A stretch of DNA of 45,643 bases from Escherichia coli (GTDB lineage: Bacteria > Pseudomonadota > Gammaproteobacteria > Enterobacterales > Enterobacteriaceae), in the NCBI RefSeq assembly GCF_003334355.1, contig NZ_QOWP01000030.1; one strand, given 5' to 3'. The notes under the pieces were generated by a model that made no database searches, had not been told where the DNA came from, and saw only the letters and a list, made by a program, of their open reading frames with translations. A program made the position numbers and the translations under genes. Positions 3,600-19,073 of the stretch are shown piece after piece (the first letter of the stretch is position 1; every line of letters starts with the position of its first letter).

Positions 3600-4109
3600 A
3601 TGAATCAGCAACGATTTGATGACAGCACCCTAATCCGTATCTTCGCCCTTCATGAGTTACATCGACTGAAAGAACATGGCTTAACGCGCGGGGCGCTTCT
3701 CGATTATCACAGCCGCTATAAACTCGTCTTTCTGGCGCATTCTCAGCCGGAGTACCGCAAACTTGGCCCGTTCGTGGCTGATATTCACCAGTGGCAAAAT
3801 CTGGATGATTTTTACAACCAGTACTACCAACGCGTAATTGTTTTGCTTTCTCATCCCGCCAACCCGCGCGATCACACCAACGTTTTGATGCACGTTCAGG
3901 GTTATTTTCGCCCGCATATTGATTCCACAGAACGCCAGCAGTTGGCGGCGCTTATCGACAGTTATCGCCGTGGCGAGCAACCACTTCTTGCGCCGCTGAT
4001 GCGTATCAAACACTATATGGCGCTTTATCCTGACGCCTGGCTTTCAGGGCAGCGTTATTTCGAACTTTGGCCGCGTGTGATTAACTTGCGCCATTCAGGA
4101 GTTTTATGA
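3600..4109 (+). CDS. ybgA: DUF1722-family protein of unknown function, co-transcribed with photolyase
   Basis: 169-aa ORF with AGGAG 5 nt upstream of the ATG; its stop overlaps the phr start (ATGA). Confidence 0.9.
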   Translation: MNQQRFDDSTLIRIFALHELHRLKEHGLTRGALLDYHSRYKLVFLAHSQPEYRKLGPFVADIHQWQNLDDFYNQYYQRVIVLLSHPANPRDHTNVLMHVQGYFRPHIDSTERQQLAALIDSYRRGEQPLLAPLMRIKHYMALYPDAWLSGQRYFELWPRVINLRHSGVL

Positions 4110-5524
4110 TTACCCATCTGGTCTGGTTTCGCCAGGATTTACGTCTGCACGATAATCTCGCACTGGCTGCCGCCTGCCGCAATTCGTCTGCACGCGTGCT
4201 GGCGTTATATATCGCTACACCACGCCAGTGGGCGACGCATAACATGTCGCCGCGTCAGGCTGAACTTATCAATGCTCAACTGAATGGGCTACAAATAGCG
4301 CTTGCGGAAAAAGGTATTCCTTTATTGTTCCGTGAAGTGGATGACTTTGTCGCCAGTGTCGAAATAGTTAAACAGGTGTGCGCGGAAAACAGCGTTACCC
4401 ACCTGTTTTATAACTATCAGTATGAAGTGAATGAGCGGGCGCGGGATGTGGAAGTTGAAAGAGCGCTGCGTAACGTGGTGTGTGAAGGATTTGATGACAG
4501 CGTGATCCTGCCGCCTGGCGCGGTGATGACCGGTAATCACGAGATGTACAAAGTCTTTACGCCTTTTAAGAATGCCTGGCTGAAACGGCTGCGGGAAGGG
4601 ATGCCGGAGTGTGTCGCTGCGCCAAAAGTTCGTAGTAGCGGATCGATAGAGCCCGCGCCATCCATTACGCTGAATTATCCTCGTCAGTCTTTCGATACTG
4701 CGCATTTCCCGGTGGAAGAAAAAGCGGCGATTGCGCAATTACGCCAGTTTTGCCAGAACGGTGCCGGAGAATATGACCAACAACGAGATTTTCCGGCAGT
4801 GGAAGGCACCAGTCGTTTGTCCACCAGCCTGGCAACGGGCGGGTTATCGCCTCGCCAGTGTTTGCATCGCTTGTTGGCGGAACAGCCGCAGGCGCTGGAC
4901 GGTGGGGCCGGTAGTGTCTGGCTTAGTGAGCTGATCTGGCGCGAGTTCTACCGTCACCTGATAACGTATCACCCCTCGTTGTGTAAACATCGTCCATTTA
5001 TTGCCTGGACGGATCGTGTACAGTGGCAGAGCAATCCCGCACATTTACAGGCCTGGCAGGAAGGCAAAACGGGATACCCGATTGTTGATGCCGCTATGCG
5101 TCAGCTTAACAGCACTGGCTGGATGCATAACAGGCTACGGATGATTACAGCCAGTTTTCTGGTGAAAGATTTATTGATCGACTGGCGCGAAGGCGAGCGA
5201 TATTTCATGTCGCAGCTGATTGATGGTGATTTGGCAGCCAATAACGGTGGCTGGCAGTGGGCCGCTTCAACCGGAACCGATGCAGCGCCGTATTTTCGTA
5301 TTTTCAACCCGACAACCCAGGGCGAGAAATTTGATCATGAGGGCGAGTTTATCCGCCAGTGGCTACCGGAACTGCGCGATGTGCCAGGGAAAGTGGTGCA
5401 TGAGCCGTGGAAGTGGGCGCAGAAAGCAGGTGTGACGCTGGATTATCCGCAACCGATAGTCGAGCACAAAGAAGCGAGAGTACAAACGTTGGCAGCGTAT
5501 GAGGCGGCGCGGAAGGGGAAATAA
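4106..5524 (+). CDS. phr: Deoxyribodipyrimidine photolyase (CPD photolyase)
   Basis: 472-aa ORF; translation recognised as E. coli photolyase, including the FAD-binding C-terminal region WREFYRH...NGGWQW. Confidence 0.95.
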   Translation: MITHLVWFRQDLRLHDNLALAAACRNSSARVLALYIATPRQWATHNMSPRQAELINAQLNGLQIALAEKGIPLLFREVDDFVASVEIVKQVCAENSVTHLFYNYQYEVNERARDVEVERALRNVVCEGFDDSVILPPGAVMTGNHEMYKVFTPFKNAWLKRLREGMPECVAAPKVRSSGSIEPAPSITLNYPRQSFDTAHFPVEEKAAIAQLRQFCQNGAGEYDQQRDFPAVEGTSRLSTSLATGGLSPRQCLHRLLAEQPQALDGGAGSVWLSELIWREFYRHLITYHPSLCKHRPFIAWTDRVQWQSNPAHLQAWQEGKTGYPIVDAAMRQLNSTGWMHNRLRMITASFLVKDLLIDWREGERYFMSQLIDGDLAANNGGWQWAASTGTDAAPYFRIFNPTTQGEKFDHEGEFIRQWLPELRDVPGKVVHEPWKWAQKAGVTLDYPQPIVEHKEARVQTLAAYEAARKGK

Positions 5525-5552: not shown

Positions 5553-5658
5553 GCCGGATGCGGCGTGAACGCCTTATCCAGCCTACAAATTTGTGCAAAT
5601 TCAATAAATTGCAGGAAATACGTAGGCCTGATAAGACGCGTCAAGCGTCGCATCAGGC
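5553..5658. repeat. Pair of REP (BIME-type) palindromic elements in opposite orientation between the convergent phr and dtpD
   Basis: gccggatgcggcgtgaacgccttatccagcctaca and gtaggcctgataagacgcgtcaagcgtcgcatcaggc match the canonical REP pattern. Confidence 0.8.
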
Positions 5659-9774: not shown

Positions 9775-10498
9775 CCTGAACGCCGATCTGGGCGAAGGCT
9801 GCGCCAGCGACGCAGAGCTATTAACGCTGGTTTCCTCTGCCAATATTGCCTGTGGATTTCATGCAGGCGATGCGCAAATCATGCAGGCTTGCGTGCGTGA
9901 AGCAATAAAAAATGGTGTCGCGATTGGCGCTCACCCGAGTTTTCCCGACAGGGAAAATTTTGGTCGCAGCGCCATGCAGCTGCCGCCAGAAACCGTTTAC
10001 GCCCAGACGCTGTATCAAATTGGCGCGCTGGCAACGATTGCCCGTGCGCAAGGCGGCGTAATGCGTCATGTCAAACCGCACGGCATGTTGTACAACCAGG
10101 CGGCGAAAGAAGCACAACTGGCAGCCGCCATCGCCAGAGCGGTATACGCTTGCGATCCAGCATTGGTTCTCGTCGGGCTGGCAGGAAGCGAGCTGATTCG
10201 TGCAGGCAAGCAATATGGCCTGACAACGCGCGAGGAAGTGTTTGCCGATCGCGGTTATCAGGCTGACGGCTCGCTGGTGCCGCGAAGCCAGCCAGGCGCG
10301 TTGATTGAAAACGAAGAACAGGCGCTGGCGCAAACGCTGGAGATGGTGCAACACGGCAGAGTCAAAAGTATCACCGGCGAATGGGCAACGGTCACGGCGC
10401 AAACGGTCTGCCTGCATGGCGACGGCGAGCACGCACTGGCATTCGCCCGCCGACTACGCTCTACATTTGCCGAAAAGGGGATTGTTGTCGCAGCATAA
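9764..10498 (+). CDS. pxpA: 5-oxoprolinase subunit A (LamB/YcsF family)
   Basis: 244-aa ORF overlapping pxpC by 11 nt. Recognised as YbgL. Confidence 0.92.
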
Positions 10499-10533
10499 CC
10501 CCGCTTAATAAAGAATGAAAAAAGGATATCACC

Positions 10534-11325
10534 ATGCCTGAAGGCCCGGAGATCCGCCGTGCAGCGGATAACCTGGAGGCGGCGATCAAAGGCAAACCAC
10601 TAACTGATGTCTGGTTTGCCTTCCCGCAGTTAAAATCTTATCAATCACCACTTATCGGTCAACACGTTACCCATGTGGAAACGCGTGGTAAGGCGTTGTT
10701 AACTCATTTTTCCAACGACTTAACGCTCTACAGCCATAATCAGCTTTACGGCGTTTGGCGCGTGGTTGATACCGGCGAAGAGCCGCAGACCACGCGAGTA
10801 TTGCGGGTAAAACTGCAAACGGTTGACAAAACCATTCTGCTTTATAGCGCCTCGGATATTGAGATGTTGACCCCGGAACAACTGACCACGCATCCGTTTT
10901 TACAACGCGTTGGTCCCGATGTGCTGGATCCGAATCTGACGCCGGAGGTGGTAAAGGAACGATTATTGTCGCCGCGCTTTCGTAACCGTCAGTTTGCAGG
11001 ATTACTGCTCGATCAGGCGTTTCTGGCTGGGCTTGGCAATTATTTGCGGGTGGAGATCCTCTGGCAGGTTGGGGTGACTGGAAATCATAAAGCGAAAGAT
11101 CTCAATGCGGCGCAACTGGATGCACTCGCACACGCGTTACTGGAGATTCCTCGGTTTTCTTACGCTACGCGGGGGCAGGTGGATGAGAATAAGCATCATG
11201 GGGCGCTGTTTCGCTTTAAGGTTTTTCATCGTGATGGCGAACTGTGCGAACGCTGTGGCGGCATCATTGAGAAAACCACGTTGTCCTCGCGCCCGTTTTA
11301 CTGGTGTCCAGGCTGCCAGCACTAG
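10534..11325 (+). CDS. nei: Endonuclease VIII (DNA glycosylase/AP lyase, Fpg/Nei family)
   Basis: 263-aa ORF starting MPEGPEIRR (N-terminal Pro and Glu catalytic residues) and ending with a zinc finger CERCGG...CPGCQ. Confidence 0.95.
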
Positions 11326-12368
11326 GCCGACCGCTTCGGCGCATAGGTTGAAATAAACCGCGCAATGGCTGGCCCCGTCAGCAAAATACTGAACAGGCGC
11401 AGGGTTTGCATCGCCATAATAAGCGCCATATCGGCATTGCTCCCTGCGGCGATGACCGCCACGGTATCAAGCCCGCCGGGACTGGTGGCGAGGTAGGCAG
11501 TCATAAAATCAATATGCATAAACCGGGTCAGTCCCCACGCCATACCTGCACAAATAGCCAGCAGAGCAAAAATCGACAGCAGGATTTGCGGTAGTGGGCG
11601 TAGTGCCCGCAGTAAGATTTGTTTATCGAAACCAAGACCAATCCGCCAGCCAATTGCCATATACGCCATCGCCAGCAGCCATTCCGGTAGTTCGATGGTG
11701 ATGAGCTGACCAGACTGGAGCACTGCGCCCGCCAGCATCGGGATGAGCATCGTGCCGGAAGGAAGACGCAGCAGGCATCCCACTGTACCGGCAACGACCG
11801 CGAGCAAAATAGTAAGCAGGAGATTAATGCTCACTGGCGGGAACCAGACGATATGCTGGTTAACCGCTTCAGCGTTATCGCCCAGCATCATGCGGGTGAC
11901 CAGAACAGCGGCCCCCGCGACGAACAGCACTCGCAGATATTGCATAAACGCCACCAGGCGAATATCTGCGCCGTAATCTTGCGCCATAGCGACCATTGCC
12001 GCCGCGCCGCCAGGAGAGGAGCCCCAGGCACCGGTATTTCCAGGCAATGAGCTATAGCGCACCAATAACCAACCCACAATGGCGCTGGAAAGCAGCGTTA
12101 CCAGTAAAATTGCAAGCACGATCGGCCAGTTGACAGCCAGGGTGGTGAGAATCGAACCAGTGAGGTTTTGCGCAATCATGCAGCCAAGAATGGCCTGGGC
12201 GGCGAGAAAAGCAGAGCGGGGAAGTTGCAGAGTAATTCCGCGCATACTAAAGATGATCCCGGCAATCATCGGCCCAAGTAATAGCGCCGCCGGGAGATGT
12301 ACCGCGAGGAAACCAATAGAAAGGAGAAGTGATAGCACACATAACATTCCCCACTGCAAAACTGGCAT
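11322..12368 (-). CDS. abrB: AbrB-family membrane protein (putative regulator/transporter)
   Basis: Polytopic membrane ORF. I place the start at the ATG at 12368 (MPVLQWGML..., 348 aa) rather than the 374-codon maximum at 12446. Its 3' end overlaps nei by 4 nt. Confidence 0.85.
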
Positions 12369-12519
12369 CCTTCGCTCCCTCATTATTTTCTCTTTGGTGT
12401 ATCGATACAGCATAAAGAAAGCCGGGCCAGGAAAAAATAACAGCAATCAAGGAAAAGGGGAAAATCAGCAATTTTCTGAAAGAGATGCCCTTTCCGGCTG
12501 CAAAGGGCATCATGGCAAA

Positions 12520-13581
12520 TCAGTTATAGTTAATCTTAAAAAGCACCACTGTATCGAAGGGCCCAGCCTCGATGGGGGTACCTGCAATGGACGAAAGTTC
12601 AGCTGTATAGGTTTTTTCGTAGATCAACATGTCACTGGTGAAATCGGCGTATTCAGCATATTTATTGAAGGTATAAGGCGAGGCGTTTTCATCCAGTAAA
12701 CGTAGCTTCAGACCATTACCAATCAACAATGCTTTATCTTCTTCAACCAACGTTTCTTCGGTATAAAAGGAGGAACTAACTTTAAATCCGTCGGTGCATT
12801 GGTCATTTTGTGATTTTGTCGTCTTAATACTGAATGTTTTCGACATTGTGTGGCGACGAATATCCAGCAAATTAAATTTACCAAAATCTATCACCTGTGT
12901 TTCCGGTGAAATGGAAAAATTGACGCTGCAATCCAGCACGCGAATGTTTTCCAGACCAGTAATATGATATTTCAGGTTTTGGGCGGTAGGATCTTCGTTA
13001 ACGCTACCGGCACCGTCAAATTGCACGACGATATAGTCGCTAAGCGTACTTTGATAATCATGCGGCGGCATTTCTCGTATTTTGACGTATAACCGCATGC
13101 GAGCGAGAAAGGTACGCGACATGTGAATATTAGCGGGATCGCCCGAACAAATTTTGTTCTGCCATCCCATCGCGATGATCTGCTCAGGGGTATAAATGTC
13201 AATGTTCTTACTGTCGATACACTGGTTAGTGTCGATGCGGCTTTTTCCCTGGTTGGCGTCATAATCAACGCCATTGTAAGTTACGCCGAGTTGATAATAG
13301 CGATCCTGCACCCCCGGGTAGGGGTTTACCCAGGCGTAGACATGCTCACTTTCAAAGTTGCCGTTGGTATTGTTGTCACAATAGACGGGAATTTTAATAT
13401 CGTCAGATTCCCAAATCTTATCGCCGGGTTTGGCATTGCCTGGTACAGCAAAAGGTTGAATCACTTCTGATTTTTCTACCGAACCACCGGATGAACCAAA
13501 GTAGCAGTTCAGGGCAAGCGCAGACTTCAACGGCAGAAATAACAGACAGATGACGAGCAACACTCCCTTGCCAGCACTCAT
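12520..13581 (-). CDS. ybgO: Fimbrial adhesin-like protein, last gene of a chaperone-usher operon
   Basis: 353 aa from the ATG at 13581 ([23 protein letters not shown], signal peptide), with GGAGG 7 nt upstream. The ATG overlaps the ybgP stop (ATGA). Confidence 0.85.
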
Positions 13582-14309
13582 TTCTTCGCCTCCACGGCTT
13601 GTAAACGGCATTCTCCGCTGCAGTTGAGCGTCGTCATGCGTAACGCGCCGTAATCATCCATATAACCGAGATAAAACTGGCTGCCGCTATAACTTCCGGT
13701 GTTTGTGTTGACCGTACTAAAAGGCGCAATCATCACGGTTTTGAAGCCGGGGAAAACGCCTTTTTCATTTCTCCCCAGATAGGCAATGGTCAGATAATAC
13801 GCGGTAGGATTTTTCAGTGTCAGTTGGTTGCCCTGCTGGCTAACCTGTAACTGCAGTTCGACCTTTTCTCCTGCTTTCTTGCGTAATGCAGCCGGTCGCC
13901 AGAACACCTTGATACGACTCTGAATGGCGACTTGCAGAACGGCATGGTCGCTGTTTTTTTCCGGGGCGGGAGGAATTTCACGCATATTGTAGAAAAATAG
14001 CGTTTCGCGATCGCCCGGTAATTTCGCGGTCGAGGCTTGCTTTACTATCCGCACCTGCGTTGTTGCTTTCGGTTCCAGACGTTGTATCGGTGGCAGGGCA
14101 ACCAGAAGATCATCGCTTTTCTCCCCTTTTTCATTTTCGAGCCAGGAATAAGCGAGGTAGGGGAGTTTATCGCTACGATTATCCACGCGCAGACTGGTAG
14201 CTTTATCATTAGCGTTAAACACAATACGAGTGAGATCGGGTTGTAGTGCAGCGTGGCTGCACAGACTGGCAACCAACAACAAAAGGGGTAGTCCTTTCAT
14301 AAATGTCAT
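13578..14309 (-). CDS. ybgP: Periplasmic fimbrial chaperone (PapD-like)
   Basis: Signal peptide followed by a chaperone-like fold sequence. Start is ambiguous among ATGs at 14315, 14309 and 14300; 14309 has the best AGGA spacing. Confidence 0.82.
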
Positions 14310-14323
14310 TTTCATTTCCTTAA

Positions 14324-16783
14324 TTAATGACAAGGTAAAATCAGGCGATTTGCGGTGTCTTCCATATGTTCAGGAAGATGGAGCGAGCAATGCTGACTAT
14401 CACCCCAGACCACGGTAAACTTTTGATTTTCAGCGACTCCGCTTAACCAGGCATGTCCTTCCTCGCCAACCATCCCCACGCTAATGCCGCTGTCATCCTG
14501 GCGGATATCCGCTCCGAGGGGAGGAAACTGACCGCTGGCGTTGCGAATGATGACGTTAACGTCTTTACCGGAACGGGAAGCCAGTGATTTGTAACCTATC
14601 GCGCCTTCAATCCACGTTTCTTTGATAACGTTTTCTGCAACTGTTACGCCGTCGGGTAAGTCATTCATGTTCACCGCCACGGTGGAAGGCTGGTAACTGG
14701 AAATCAACGGCACCACCGCAATGCCAAAATGGTTGGTGTAGTCGAGATTGCCCTGAACCGGAATATCTGCCACGCCATCGGTGCTGACCATCAGGCGTGG
14801 TTCATTGGTGGAGCTGCGGCGATGAAACGCTGCACCATATTGGGTTGCGGTGAAAGAACCGCTCCAGCTGCTGCTGACGGAACTGTAATCATTGGCGGCA
14901 TAGGTACCAGAAATATCCCACTCACCCGCTGAACTCAGGTGCTGATAGTTACCGCTCACCTGGGCTCCATTGTCAGGACGGTCGGATTGCAGTCCGGCAG
15001 ACATGCCCCAGCTATTACGTTCATCCAGCGTATCGTTCCACGACATGCGGTGTGTGGTGCTGTGGCTACTGTTTTGCATGTCATAGCCAACCCGACCACC
15101 GTTACCGAAGGGGAGCGAAATCGACAGGTAAATCTGGTTGTCGCGATCTTTATCTTCGTAATGGGTTGTATTGAATGACGTCGAAATAGAGATATCTCTC
15201 CAGTCACCAATATCAACATTAAAACCTGCCGTGATGTTGGCGGTCGTGGAGGCGTCTGCATTCCACCAGGTTTGATGTAGCAGGTTGGCGTAAAGATTGA
15301 GGTTTAGTGGGGTAATCGGTTGGCCCACAGATAAGCTGATCGTCTGTTTTTCGTCCTGCGCATCGCTGTCGTTGTATTTGTGATCCAGATAGTTGGCGTA
15401 GCTGTGAAAATGACGATCGGAGAAACGATAAGCGGCGAGGGAAATCGTGCTGTTAGTGGCATCCACTTGTTTGCTGTAATTAAAACGGTAGCTTAAGCCC
15501 CGCTCGTCCTGCTGAGTATCAAAATGGCTACTGGCCCACGTGACATCAAACGACAGCGCACCAAGCCACAGCATATTTTGCCCAATACCCATTGCGGCAG
15601 AATGGTAGTCATCACCAGAAAGCAGCAGGCCGCCGTACAGCGAGGTGTTTGACAGCATCCCCCAGGAAACTTCATTGCTAAAAAAGGTTTCATTTTCAGT
15701 TTGATGTGACATGGAGGGCCGTGGCTGACCCGCGGCCAGTTTATAGCGAACCTGTCCCTGACGAGTCAGGAAGGGCGTCGATGCTGCCGAAACCTGGAAA
15801 TTGTTCACCCGACCATCTTCTTCCGTCACTTTGACATCAAGCGTGCCCTGAACAGACTGATTGAGGTCATCAATAATAAACAGTCCCGGAGGGACTTTTT
15901 TCTGGTAAATGACGCGACCTGATTGACTGATCGTCACCGTGGCATTGGTCTGTGCAATACCGCTAATTTGTGGGGCGTATCCGCGTAGCTCCCATGGCAA
16001 CATTCGATCGTCACTCGCCAGTGCCGCGCCAGTATAAGAAAAACCATCGAAAATATTGGAACTGAAATCGGTTTCGCCGAGGGTTAATTTAGAGCCTAAT
16101 TGCGGTAATGGACGAAAAAGATAGGTGCGCGATATTCCGCCTGACTGTTCATGGCTATCTTCGCTATCGGTGTTATTAAGCTGGTAATCACTGCGTAAGC
16201 GCCATGACCCGGCGTTAATTCCGGTGGTACCGTAGGCGTTCAGGTTAGTGCTGCTGCTGCCGTCCTGTGGGCGGTAGTTGCTGGCAAACAGGTTATAATC
16301 CATCAGGACCCCGGCAACACCTTCTTTCCATGTAGAGGGGGGAGCCCAGTTTTCTGAGTGCCACGCCAGCCAGGCTTGCGGAATACTAATATTCAGTTGC
16401 TGATTGGCTTGATCGAAATTGAAGAGCATTTCAGGTCGGGAACTGAAATCAATACACCGATCTATCTGTGGCAAGGACTGACGGATATCTGGTTTTAAAC
16501 CAAATTTATCGACCAGTGAATCATTGATGCATGGAATGGTTTTGTCACCCTTTTTTTGCCAGTTGATTTTTTGCCCATTACTGATTTGGTTGTTATTCAC
16601 CGCAACGCTAACAAAATATTCACCGGGAGCAATGACTCCTTTTTCCTTTAATAATGAAATATCAATGCGGTCGCGCATTGATTTATCGAGAACATTCAGA
16701 TTAAATTCGACCGCCAATGCGCAAGGCATCGCCATGACCAGGCAGGATAGAAAAGAGAGTCGATAAATATTCACGGTGTCCAT
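14324..16783 (-). CDS. ybgQ: Outer-membrane fimbrial usher protein
   Basis: Large usher-like ORF of about 820 aa. The ATG at 16783 (MDTVNIYRLSF...) is preferred; the 833-codon track start at 16825 is a TTG placed upstream of a GC-rich hairpin. Confidence 0.85.
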   Translation of the reverse strand: MDTVNIYRLSFLSCLVMAMPCALAVEFNLNVLDKSMRDRIDISLLKEKGVIAPGEYFVSVAVNNNQISNGQKINWQKKGDKTIPCINDSLVDKFGLKPDIRQSLPQIDRCIDFSSRPEMLFNFDQANQQLNISIPQAWLAWHSENWAPPSTWKEGVAGVLMDYNLFASNYRPQDGSSSTNLNAYGTTGINAGSWRLRSDYQLNNTDSEDSHEQSGGISRTYLFRPLPQLGSKLTLGETDFSSNIFDGFSYTGAALASDDRMLPWELRGYAPQISGIAQTNATVTISQSGRVIYQKKVPPGLFIIDDLNQSVQGTLDVKVTEEDGRVNNFQVSAASTPFLTRQGQVRYKLAAGQPRPSMSHQTENETFFSNEVSWGMLSNTSLYGGLLLSGDDYHSAAMGIGQNMLWLGALSFDVTWASSHFDTQQDERGLSYRFNYSKQVDATNSTISLAAYRFSDRHFHSYANYLDHKYNDSDAQDEKQTISLSVGQPITPLNLNLYANLLHQTWWNADASTTANITAGFNVDIGDWRDISISTSFNTTHYEDKDRDNQIYLSISLPFGNGGRVGYDMQNSSHSTTHRMSWNDTLDERNSWGMSAGLQSDRPDNGAQVSGNYQHLSSAGEWDISGTYAANDYSSVSSSWSGSFTATQYGAAFHRRSSTNEPRLMVSTDGVADIPVQGNLDYTNHFGIAVVPLISSYQPSTVAVNMNDLPDGVTVAENVIKETWIEGAIGYKSLASRSGKDVNVIIRNASGQFPPLGADIRQDDSGISVGMVGEEGHAWLSGVAENQKFTVVWGDSQHCSLHLPEHMEDTANRLILPCH

Positions 16784-16833
16784 ACCTGATAAATATTTGA
16801 AGAAAGGCGGCGATAGCGCCGCCAAAGTAATAC

Positions 16834-17400
16834 TTATTTATAATCCAGCACGTAGGTCGCATTCGCTGTAACTGCGCCTGGCGTTACAGGTGTAGCCTGA
16901 TCAATTTGTTCCATCCAGGCAAAGAAATTCAGCGTTTGTTCGCTGGAGGTCGGAGCCAGGTCGATATCTGGAGTAGCGGTGCCTAAAACGATATTGCTTT
17001 GATCTTTATTCATTAAACGTACGCCGACGCCGGTGGCTTCACCCGTGCTGGTGTTGTTGAGAATCGGATCTGCGCCGGTGGTTTTCGCTGAGCTATCAAA
17101 GGTGACTGCAACTTTAGAAATCTTGCCACCGGAACCGTTGCTGGAGTTTTCCAGATCACAGTTGACTAAGCGCAGGTCGACAGCAACGGCATCGCTGTGA
17201 TGTGACTGATTAATGTGGCTGGTGGTCACCTGACCGAGTTCAACCTCTTTATCAATATCATCCTGATGTATTTCACACGGTGCTTCAATAACTTCACCTT
17301 TAAAGTGAATTTCACCGGATCCTTCATCAGCTGCATAAACAGGTGCAGTGAATAGCAGAGATATGGCCAGAGCGGTCAATGTTTTTTGTCCTTTAAACAT
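16834..17400 (-). CDS. ybgD: Fimbrial major subunit-like protein
   Basis: 188 aa from the ATG at 17400 (MFKGQKTLTALAISLLFTAPVYA, signal peptide), with AAGGA 8 nt upstream. First gene of the ybgD-Q-P-O operon. Confidence 0.88.
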   Translation of the reverse strand: MFKGQKTLTALAISLLFTAPVYAADEGSGEIHFKGEVIEAPCEIHQDDIDKEVELGQVTTSHINQSHHSDAVAVDLRLVNCDLENSSNGSGGKISKVAVTFDSSAKTTGADPILNNTSTGEATGVGVRLMNKDQSNIVLGTATPDIDLAPTSSEQTLNFFAWMEQIDQATPVTPGAVTANATYVLDYK

Positions 17401-17727
17401 AACTGAGTCCTTTAAATAATGAGATAGAGTGTTGCGTGGCAAGAATATATAAAATGACAATTGAATGTATTTGGTTTTATTTAATAATATTAAAAAGCTT
17501 GTGATATAAAGAATGGAATAATTGAGTGCATAAATTTATTGTTTAATGAGATGAAGGATGGGGTGGGATGGATATGCATAATTTTCATTGGGTTAACAAT
17601 GTTACCGGCAGGGAAGTATAAAAATAAACTTATCATTCTGCTCAGTATGTGACTTGTCTCATTTTTTCACCTTATTAATGGGTATTTGCATCTGGTTTAA
17701 TTTTTACAATTTTTTATGTTCAGCCAT

Positions 17728-17759
17728 ATAAAAAAGAACCCGCTCTATTAAAGGCGGGT
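17728..17759 (-). terminator. Putative intrinsic terminator downstream of gltA
   Basis: On the minus strand: ACCCGC stem, 10-nt loop, GCGGGT, then UCUUUUUU. Lies 30 nt past the gltA stop. Confidence 0.5.
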
Positions 17760-17789
17760 CCGGAAAGTAAACGGCTTAGCAATCAATCA

Positions 17790-19073
17790 TTAACGCTTGA
17801 TATCGCTTTTAAAGTCGCGTTTTTCATATCCTGTATACAGCTGACGCGGACGGGCAATCTTCATACCGTCACTGTGCATCTCGCTCCAGTGGGCGATCCA
17901 GCCAACGGTACGTGCCATTGCGAAAATGACGGTGAACATGGAAGACGGAATACCCATCGCTTTCAGGATGATACCAGAGTAGAAATCGACGTTCGGGTAC
18001 AGTTTCTTCTCGATAAAGTACGGGTCGTTCAGCGCGATGTTTTCCAGCTCCATAGCCACTTCCAGCAGGTCATCCTTCGTGCCCAGCTCTTTCAGCACTT
18101 CATGGCAGGTTTCACGCATTACGGTGGCGCGCGGGTCGTAATTTTTGTACACGCGGTGACCGAAGCCCATCAGGCGGAAAGAATCATTTTTATCTTTCGC
18201 ACGACGAACAAATTCCGGAATGTGTTTAACGGAGCTGATTTCTTCCAGCATTTTCAGCGCTGCTTCGTTAGCACCACCGTGCGCAGGTCCCCACAGTGAA
18301 GCAATACCTGCTGCGATACAGGCAAACGGGTTCGCACCCGAAGAGCCAGCGGTACGCACGGTGGAGGTGGAGGCGTTCTGTTCATGGTCAGCGTGCAGGA
18401 TCAAAATACGGTCCATAGCACGTTCCAGAATCGGATTAACTTCATACGGTTCGCACGGCGTAGAGAACATCATATTCAGGAAGTTACCGGCGTAGGAGAG
18501 ATCGTTGCGCGGGTAAACAAATGGCTGACCAATGGAATACTTGTAACACATCGCTGCCATGGTCGGCATTTTCGACAGCAGGCGGAACGCGGCAATTTCA
18601 CGATGACGAGGATTGTTAACATCCAGCGAGTCGTGATAGAACGCCGCCAGCGCGCCGGTAATACCACACATGACTGCCATTGGATGTGAGTCGCGACGGA
18701 AAGCGTGGAACAGACGGGTAATCTGCTCGTGGATCATGGTATGACGGGTCACCGTAGTTTTAAATTCGTCATACTGTTCCTGAGTCGGTTTTTCACCATT
18801 CAGCAGGATGTAACAAACTTCCAGGTAGTTAGAATCGGTCGCCAGCTGATCGATCGGGAAACCGCGGTGCAGCAAAATACCTTCATCACCATCAATAAAA
18901 GTAATTTTAGATTCGCAGGATGCGGTTGAAGTGAAGCCAGGGTCAAAGGTGAACACACCTTTTGAACCGAGAGTACGGATATCAATAACATCTTGACCCA
19001 GCGTGCCTTTCAGCACATCCAGTTCAACAGCTGTGTCCCCGTTGAGGGTGAGTTTTGCTTTTGTATCAGCCAT
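17790..19073 (-). CDS. gltA: Citrate synthase (type II)
   Basis: 427-aa ORF; translation recognised as E. coli citrate synthase. Confidence 0.97.

Follow-up and report, generated by a model that had tools for sequence, protein, structure and literature searches.

Two genes that converge with nothing between them raise a double question: where does transcription of each one end, and does the arrangement itself do anything for the cell? In the window analysed here, the whole stretch of 45,643 nt of Escherichia coli DNA, nei and abrB meet tail to tail and share their last four nucleotides. The initial annotation had proposed that the facing stop codons leave no room for a terminator between the two transcripts, and that transcriptional interference or antisense overlap of the 3′ ends might be the consequence. 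We followed this proposal through the sequence of the junction, published transcript data and the corresponding loci of related species.

Two genuine genes interlock at a shared CTAG

The plus strand at 11320-11329 reads CAC TAG GCC G, and its CTA at 11322-11324, read on the opposite strand, is the abrB stop codon, likewise TAG. The stop codons proper have only the central TA (11323-11324) in common. The two outer bases each serve twice: base 11322 doubles as the wobble base of the last nei codon, CAC (His), and base 11325 as that of the last abrB codon, GCC (Ala). RefSeq starts abrB at the ATG at 12368, which gives the 348-residue product used throughout, while the mechanical open reading frame extends to 12446. 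The sharing of four nucleotides that had first been noticed is thus borne out by the letters themselves, by the open reading frames, by RefSeq and by the annotation of K-12. In K-12 MG1655, with which the window is collinear at ~735.4-781.1 kb, an identical 4-nt overlap is annotated (nei 745935..746726, plus strand; abrB 746723..747769, minus strand), as it is in the near-identical strain PSS-12, and the nei/abrB region was found in 5422 of 5426 complete E. coli genomes. Features at the junction are collected in Table 1.

The end of Nei is well defined. The protein matches the NCBIfam endonuclease VIII equivalog NF007763 with 500 bits over residues 1-263, and PDB chains 1K3W, 2OQ4 and others match residues 2-263, through the last residue of the chain. 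Only two residues, Q and H, follow the last cysteine of its zinc finger. Across the 80 species loci described below, a length of 263 aa, the same stop position and a C-P-x-C-Q-X-stop ending recur without exception (80/80), the last residue itself being variable (K, H, R, T, Q, M, S, C, L or I).

AbrB matches NCBIfam TIGR03082 (‘membrane protein AbrB duplication’) with 287 bits, and its residues 29-339 match Pfam PF05145; these two are its only family matches, and the sequence is strongly hydrophobic. RefSeq/PGAP calls the product an ‘AbrB family transcriptional regulator’ and the K-12 annotation a ‘putative regulator’, a name that, judged by the protein sequence, looks misleading. The protein has 348 aa in the species with the overlap and equally in both Salmonella in which 6 or 54 nt separate the genes, with about the last four residues varying. 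Extension of abrB after loss of an earlier stop codon was considered as the origin of the overlap and rejected, since AbrB is as long in the spaced as in the overlapping species; on these lengths, the overlap is a flush packing of nei and abrB and not an extension following stop loss.

Table 1. Features at and near the nei/abrB junction; positions are those of the window.
Feature	Position	Strand	Description	Basis
nei	10534..11325	+	endonuclease VIII, 263 aa; stop TAG at 11323-11325	ORF list, RefSeq
abrB	11322..12368	-	hydrophobic AbrB-duplication membrane protein, 348 aa	ORF list, RefSeq coordinates
Shared CTAG	11322..11325	both	opposed TAG stops of nei and abrB	sequence
Zinc-finger cysteines of Nei	11245..11316	+	C-terminal ligands C238, C241, C258, C261	read from translation
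Inverted repeat GCCGA-CCGCT-TCGGC	11326..11340	both	in the last codons of abrB; 5-bp hairpin, no U tract	
3′ extension of the nei-operon transcript	11326..11635	+	untranslated, antisense to abrB	PMC7815308; coarse resolution
Predicted Rho loading region for abrB read-through	11172..11271	-	C-rich, G-poor stretch, 50-150 nt past the abrB stop	composition
CTAG sites in the window	11322-11325, 8265, 19478, 27373, 30312, 39786		first entry is the nei/abrB junction	

The overlap belongs to the smallest class of tail-to-tail overlaps

Opposed stop codons cannot, by logic, overlap by 1-3 nt, and the only solutions at 4 nt are CTAA, TTAA, CTAG and TTAG, that is, YTAR. Lillo and Krakauer (2007; PMC2174442) showed that these four tetramers explain the jump at length 4 in the distribution of convergent overlaps. 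Tables 2 and 3 of that study list 1890 convergent overlaps in 58 genomes, 1218 of them at least 5 nt long; by subtraction, 672 (36%) are shorter than 5 nt and hence 4 nt long. The same work counts 58 convergent overlaps in E. coli and finds predicted intrinsic terminators in only ~20% of the genes that take part in convergent overlaps. The nei/abrB junction has every defining feature of the class and differs in nothing essential: nei (plus strand) and abrB (minus strand) run tail to tail, exactly four nucleotides are shared, the tetramer is CTAG, and both frames are genuine genes with conserved C-termini and no mispredicted 3′ extension. The overlap is accordingly an ordinary one, no more than chance provides, of the smallest and commonest tail-to-tail kind. 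It is also already known, being present in the reference annotation and part of a described class.

What distinguishes it from other YTAR overlaps is the tetramer. Both nei and abrB end in the rare amber stop, and two amber stops yield CTAG, the rarest of the four options in E. coli. Avoidance of CTAG is a well-known trait of this species, and the window of 45.6 kb holds 6 such sites against ~95 expected from dinucleotide-preserving shuffles.

No terminator lies between nei and abrB

A scan of 10300-12700 for terminators returned 4 candidates where 3.2 were expected, none of them at the junction. When RNA of either strand was folded over the junction and past it, the result was no better than for shuffled sequences (z -0.88 and -0.95), and the combination of a GC-rich hairpin with a U tract 3′ of the stop was absent at the nei/abrB junction. 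In E. whittamii, E. albertii and Citrobacter the overlap is kept, but the inverted repeat next to the stops (Table 1) has decayed. At gathering thresholds, Rfam places no family near the junction in a search of the whole window, and promoter-like sites within nei and abrB occur at chance level (2 found, 2.0 expected). The absence of a terminator, which had been deduced from the packing, is therefore supported by the chance-level scan and by the folds, as well as by the presence of a terminator in relatives that lack abrB (see below). Transcripts could also have ended within the coding region, short of the overlap, and the idea of overlapping 3′ ends would then have fallen; the plus strand of nei holds a single terminator-like site, a weak one at 11199-11218, and the tables of 3′ ends give none within this gene.

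Read-through from nei is limited by Rho inside abrB

We take nei to be the last gene of a ybgI-pxpBCA-nei operon. Transcription beyond it can be followed in the work of Adams et al. (2021; PMC7815308), in which Rho termination regions were defined by DirectRNA-seq with and without bicyclomycin. Supplementary file 2 of that study has a Rho region at 747036 (+) of MG1655 and classifies it as antisense to abrB; it lies 310 nt past the last base of the nei stop (~11635 in the window). Without bicyclomycin, 68 reads were counted upstream and 30 downstream of this position; with the drug, the counts were 75 upstream and 95 downstream, giving a Rho score of 2.87 (p = 7.6e-5) at low coverage, with 800-nt windows and in a single study. 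These published data, low as the counts are, show that plus-strand transcripts cross the junction and extend antisense into abrB, where they are limited by Rho; the bicyclomycin sensitivity that marks Rho termination of read-through is documented there for the plus strand only. In this respect the junction resembles many other Rho-limited antisense read-throughs of the same study, in which a large share of the 1078 Rho regions are classed as antisense.

The two strands differ in composition past the stops. The plus strand beyond nei has a C/G ratio of 1.0-1.3 and is not strongly rut-like. On the minus strand beyond the abrB stop, we counted C against G in two 100-nt windows: 36 to 17 at 11271-11172 (ratio 2.1) and 34 to 18 at 11121-11022 (ratio 1.9). 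Since this is a composition preferred by Rho, we infer that read-through from abrB probably meets the same fate and is terminated within nei. Published tables contain neither a curated Term-seq 3′ end nor a minus-strand Rho region for nei, abrB, pxpA-C or ybgO; the SMRT-Cappable-seq supplements have no entries for nei or abrB, and PMC8469502 contains nothing on nei. The antisense overlap of 3′ ends that had been suggested for both genes thus stands for nei, through the bicyclomycin-sensitive region at 747036 (+), whereas for abrB no minus-strand entry was found.

Is the overlap of the genes responsible for the overlap of the transcripts? Conway et al. (2014; PMC4161252) reported that 3′ ends overlap in 276 of 370 convergent E. 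coli operons (~75%), by 286 nt on average, and that intergenic spacers are present in most of the overlapping ones. Because most operons with overlapping transcripts have such spacers, the 4-nt gene overlap is not the cause of the transcript overlap, and the expectation of antisense transcription, while reasonable, is generic. The transcripts of those operons run hundreds of nucleotides antisense, much as the nei transcript does for at least ~310 nt. They usually have an inefficient intrinsic terminator in the spacer, whereas nei/abrB has neither spacer nor terminator, and termination is Rho-dependent and takes place inside the partner gene.

A separate observation concerns the region upstream of abrB. 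Genomic SELEX (PMC5493296) reports a peak at 747240 (coordinates of that paper) in ybgO (~12370-13580 in the window), which appears in three of its minor-sigma promoter tables with values of 3.5, 13.1 and 9.3. This peak may be relevant to abrB transcription.

Related species trace the arrangement between nei and gltA

One genome per species was scanned, which gave 80 loci encoding Nei relatives of 75-95% identity. Escherichia, Salmonella and Citrobacter are the only genera among these in which abrB converges on nei. At 13 species-level loci, 5 from Escherichia and 8 Citrobacter-like, the genes still share 4 nt, and all four tetramers (CTAG, CTAA, TTAG and TTAA) occur among them. Such variety is consistent with transitions at the outer bases being silent in both genes, CAC and CAT both encoding His as the opposite stop alternates between TAG and TAA, and GCC and GCT both encoding Ala with the same pair of stops.

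The junction takes other forms as well. A spacer separates nei from abrB by 6 nt in S. enterica subsp. arizonae, by 25 nt in C. sedlakii, by 54 nt in S. enterica subsp. diarizonae (locus L009, 3793-3846) and by 75 nt in one C. amalonaticus strain; the 54-nt spacer resembles a REP-type palindromic element (…gcctggtggcgctacgcttatcgggcctaca…). In three Citrobacter (L012, L026, L030; ~3793-4740), ~0.92-0.95 kb lie between the nei and abrB stops, and this insert contains the start of a plus-strand open reading frame (MDFRRFY...) that is signal-peptide-like. Five further Citrobacter loci (L014, L016, L018, L021, L028) share a common, different sequence directly 3′ of the nei stop. In one of these (L014, 3793-4643), a gene for an AraC-family regulator of 282 aa converges on nei and ends 2 nt past its stop, again with no terminator, so that tight, terminator-free packing at this site arose more than once.

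Where abrB is missing, most genera (Klebsiella, Enterobacter, Kluyvera, Lelliottia, Raoultella and others) have a strong canonical terminator 0-120 nt past the nei stop, with the 3′ end of gltA 40-300 nt from that stop. This terminator is often two-sided, with an A run, a hairpin and a T run, for example AAAAACGCGCC-TTCA-GGCGCGTTTTTT. In most Enterobacteriaceae (loci L022, L029 and L032-L082, ~3793-4100), nei is directly convergent with gltA, and the spacer contains a strong intrinsic terminator, REP-like repeats or both. The nei gene of Klebsiella, Enterobacter and Kluyvera has the same length and stop position as that of E. coli; what follows it differs, a strong terminator and then gltA in those genera as against abrB and ybgOPQD with no terminator in E. 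coli. In Salmonella and Citrobacter, abrB alone stands between nei and gltA, with gltA ~1.2 kb from the nei stop, and in E. coli abrB together with the fimbrial operon ybgOPQD fills ~6.5 kb (11326-17792 in the window). Escherichia sp. MOD1 (locus L005) has abrB and lacks the fimbrial genes, which E. coli shares with close relatives, and abrB and then ybgOPQD seem to be nested additions between nei and gltA. This distribution is explained most economically if the common ancestor of Escherichia, Salmonella and Citrobacter acquired abrB between nei and gltA, an event that would have left nei with no terminator of its own. The ancestral nei terminator might have survived next to gltA in E. coli; the one-sided terminator that gltA has there (~17735-17765) bears no obvious similarity to the nei-gltA terminators of Klebsiella and Enterobacter.

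One E. coli strain has a junction region altered by a prophage. In OkiPb01694 (NZ_AP042564.1; locus L083, 1-3949), a P2-like prophage with tape measure, late control D and ogrK genes has integrated into the abrB 3′ end at a distance of ~100 nt from the junction and has left abrB a pseudogene that lacks the C-terminus.

Discussion

We interpret CTAG at the nei/abrB junction as a passive, minimal stop/stop overlap that results from tight packing of two unrelated convergent genes, with read-through cleared by Rho, and put the probability of this reading at about 0.8. Under it, the 3′ end of abrB would have come to lie flush against nei in Escherichia and part of Citrobacter, so that the stop codons interlock as YTAR. 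Because transitions at the outer bases are silent in nei and abrB alike, the arrangement would be mutationally forgiving, which would account for its persistence. Each mRNA would be translated to its own stop codon; since the junction leaves no room for an intrinsic terminator, RNA polymerase would continue into the partner gene, and within a few hundred nucleotides Rho would end this untranslated extension. We infer that the overlap has no regulatory role and that the arrangement is neutral; its conserved geometry across Escherichia and Citrobacter could, however, reflect selection instead of neutrality.

Several other readings were weighed against passive packing. That the overlap is an artefact of annotation or sequencing, with one frame in fact ending earlier, draws on the general experience that convergent overlaps are sometimes due to 3′-end errors (PMC2478687), with nothing specific to nei/abrB. 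We regard it as excluded: both stop codons are unambiguous in the sequence, the junction is identical in K-12, PSS-12 and other Escherichia species, solved Nei structures include the chain through residue 263, the length of the AbrB tail is common to Salmonella, and deletion of abrB in strain DGF-298 altered the end of Nei as a real overlap predicts (PMC10652928). Quite unlikely, in our judgement, is a junction that works as an overlapping bidirectional terminator of the SEnd-seq type, in which the GCCGA...TCGGC hairpin would pause polymerases and head-on collisions would end both transcripts independently of Rho. This model has been described for convergent pairs of E. coli (bioRxiv 10.1101/2022.10.23.513370), and the terminators of Ju et al. 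(2019, as summarised there) likewise have a short inverted repeat where two convergent genes meet; at nei/abrB, the stops are indeed adjoined by a 5-bp inverted repeat, which is part of the minimum-energy structure of each strand. The fold is nevertheless no better than shuffles (z -0.9), and E. whittamii, E. albertii and Citrobacter have kept the overlap but not the repeat. Collisions would need strong transcription of both genes, and coverage is low here. The Term-seq tables give no paired 3′ ends for nei or abrB, a negative result that counts for less at such low expression. The sensitivity of the plus-strand read-through ~310 nt beyond nei to bicyclomycin also sets this junction apart from those terminators.

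The missing terminator might instead be functional, nei and abrB forming an excludon-like pair in which each transcript lowers the other through polymerase collision or through cleavage of the duplex by RNase III. The antisense extension of plus-strand transcripts into abrB and the maintenance of the terminator-free arrangement in Escherichia, Salmonella and Citrobacter would agree with this, as would the connection of both genes with DNA damage, Nei being a glycosylase and abrB having been named as a regulator of aidB. We consider this unlikely, as we found no expression data in the literature in which nei and abrB behave reciprocally, read counts are low at 747036 (+), and ~75% of convergent operons have overlapping 3′ transcripts without demonstrated function (PMC4161252). 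The junction is also evolutionarily fluid: other loci have spacers between 6 and 75 nt long, an insert resembling REP, an additional gene (~0.9 kb) or, in place of abrB, an AraC-family gene that ends 2 nt past nei. We hold as very unlikely the stronger proposal that the interlocked, terminator-free junction is itself under selection, with read-through coupling the nei operon and abrB in an excludon-like switch of genes linked to DNA damage.

The biological weight of passive packing is small, since it adds one more overlap of the commonest tail-to-tail type with the usual clean-up by Rho. The comparison does illustrate how a terminator can be lost, from the order nei-terminator-gltA of most enterobacteria to the E. 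coli lineage, in which abrB and then a fimbrial operon are wedged in. The overlap matters more in practice. If the abrB coding sequence is cleanly deleted as annotated, the nei stop codon goes with it, which makes the junction a trap for genome engineering, and recoding of either amber stop alters the last codon of the partner, silently. Such a case exists: in the genome-reduced E. coli DGF-298, a deletion from abrB to ybgD removed the end of nei. The altered protein has His263Gln followed by a 9-residue extension, and the present annotation of this strain lists nei as a pseudogene (PMC10652928). The change follows from the overlap of nei with abrB, and the 9-residue extension adjoins the C-terminal zinc finger of the enzyme.

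Other features of the window

A second tight convergent junction lies at 29649-29752, where the annotated 3′ end of the sRNA SdhX, in the 3′ UTR of sucD, is 2 nt from the stop of mngR (K-12 coordinates: sdhX 765050-765150, mngR 765153-765875). A Rho region antisense to mngR is listed at 765604 (+) in PMC7815308. Rfam further places ES036/CssrF in the convergent spacer of phr and dtpD (5587-5629), two naRNA4 (REP-type) matches in the sucB-sucC spacer (27359-27521) and the CpoB/ybgF thermometer at 44085-44223. At the 3′ end of the window (45150-45639), it identifies a tRNA cluster, lysT-valT-lysW-valZ in K-12, together with an RtT match.
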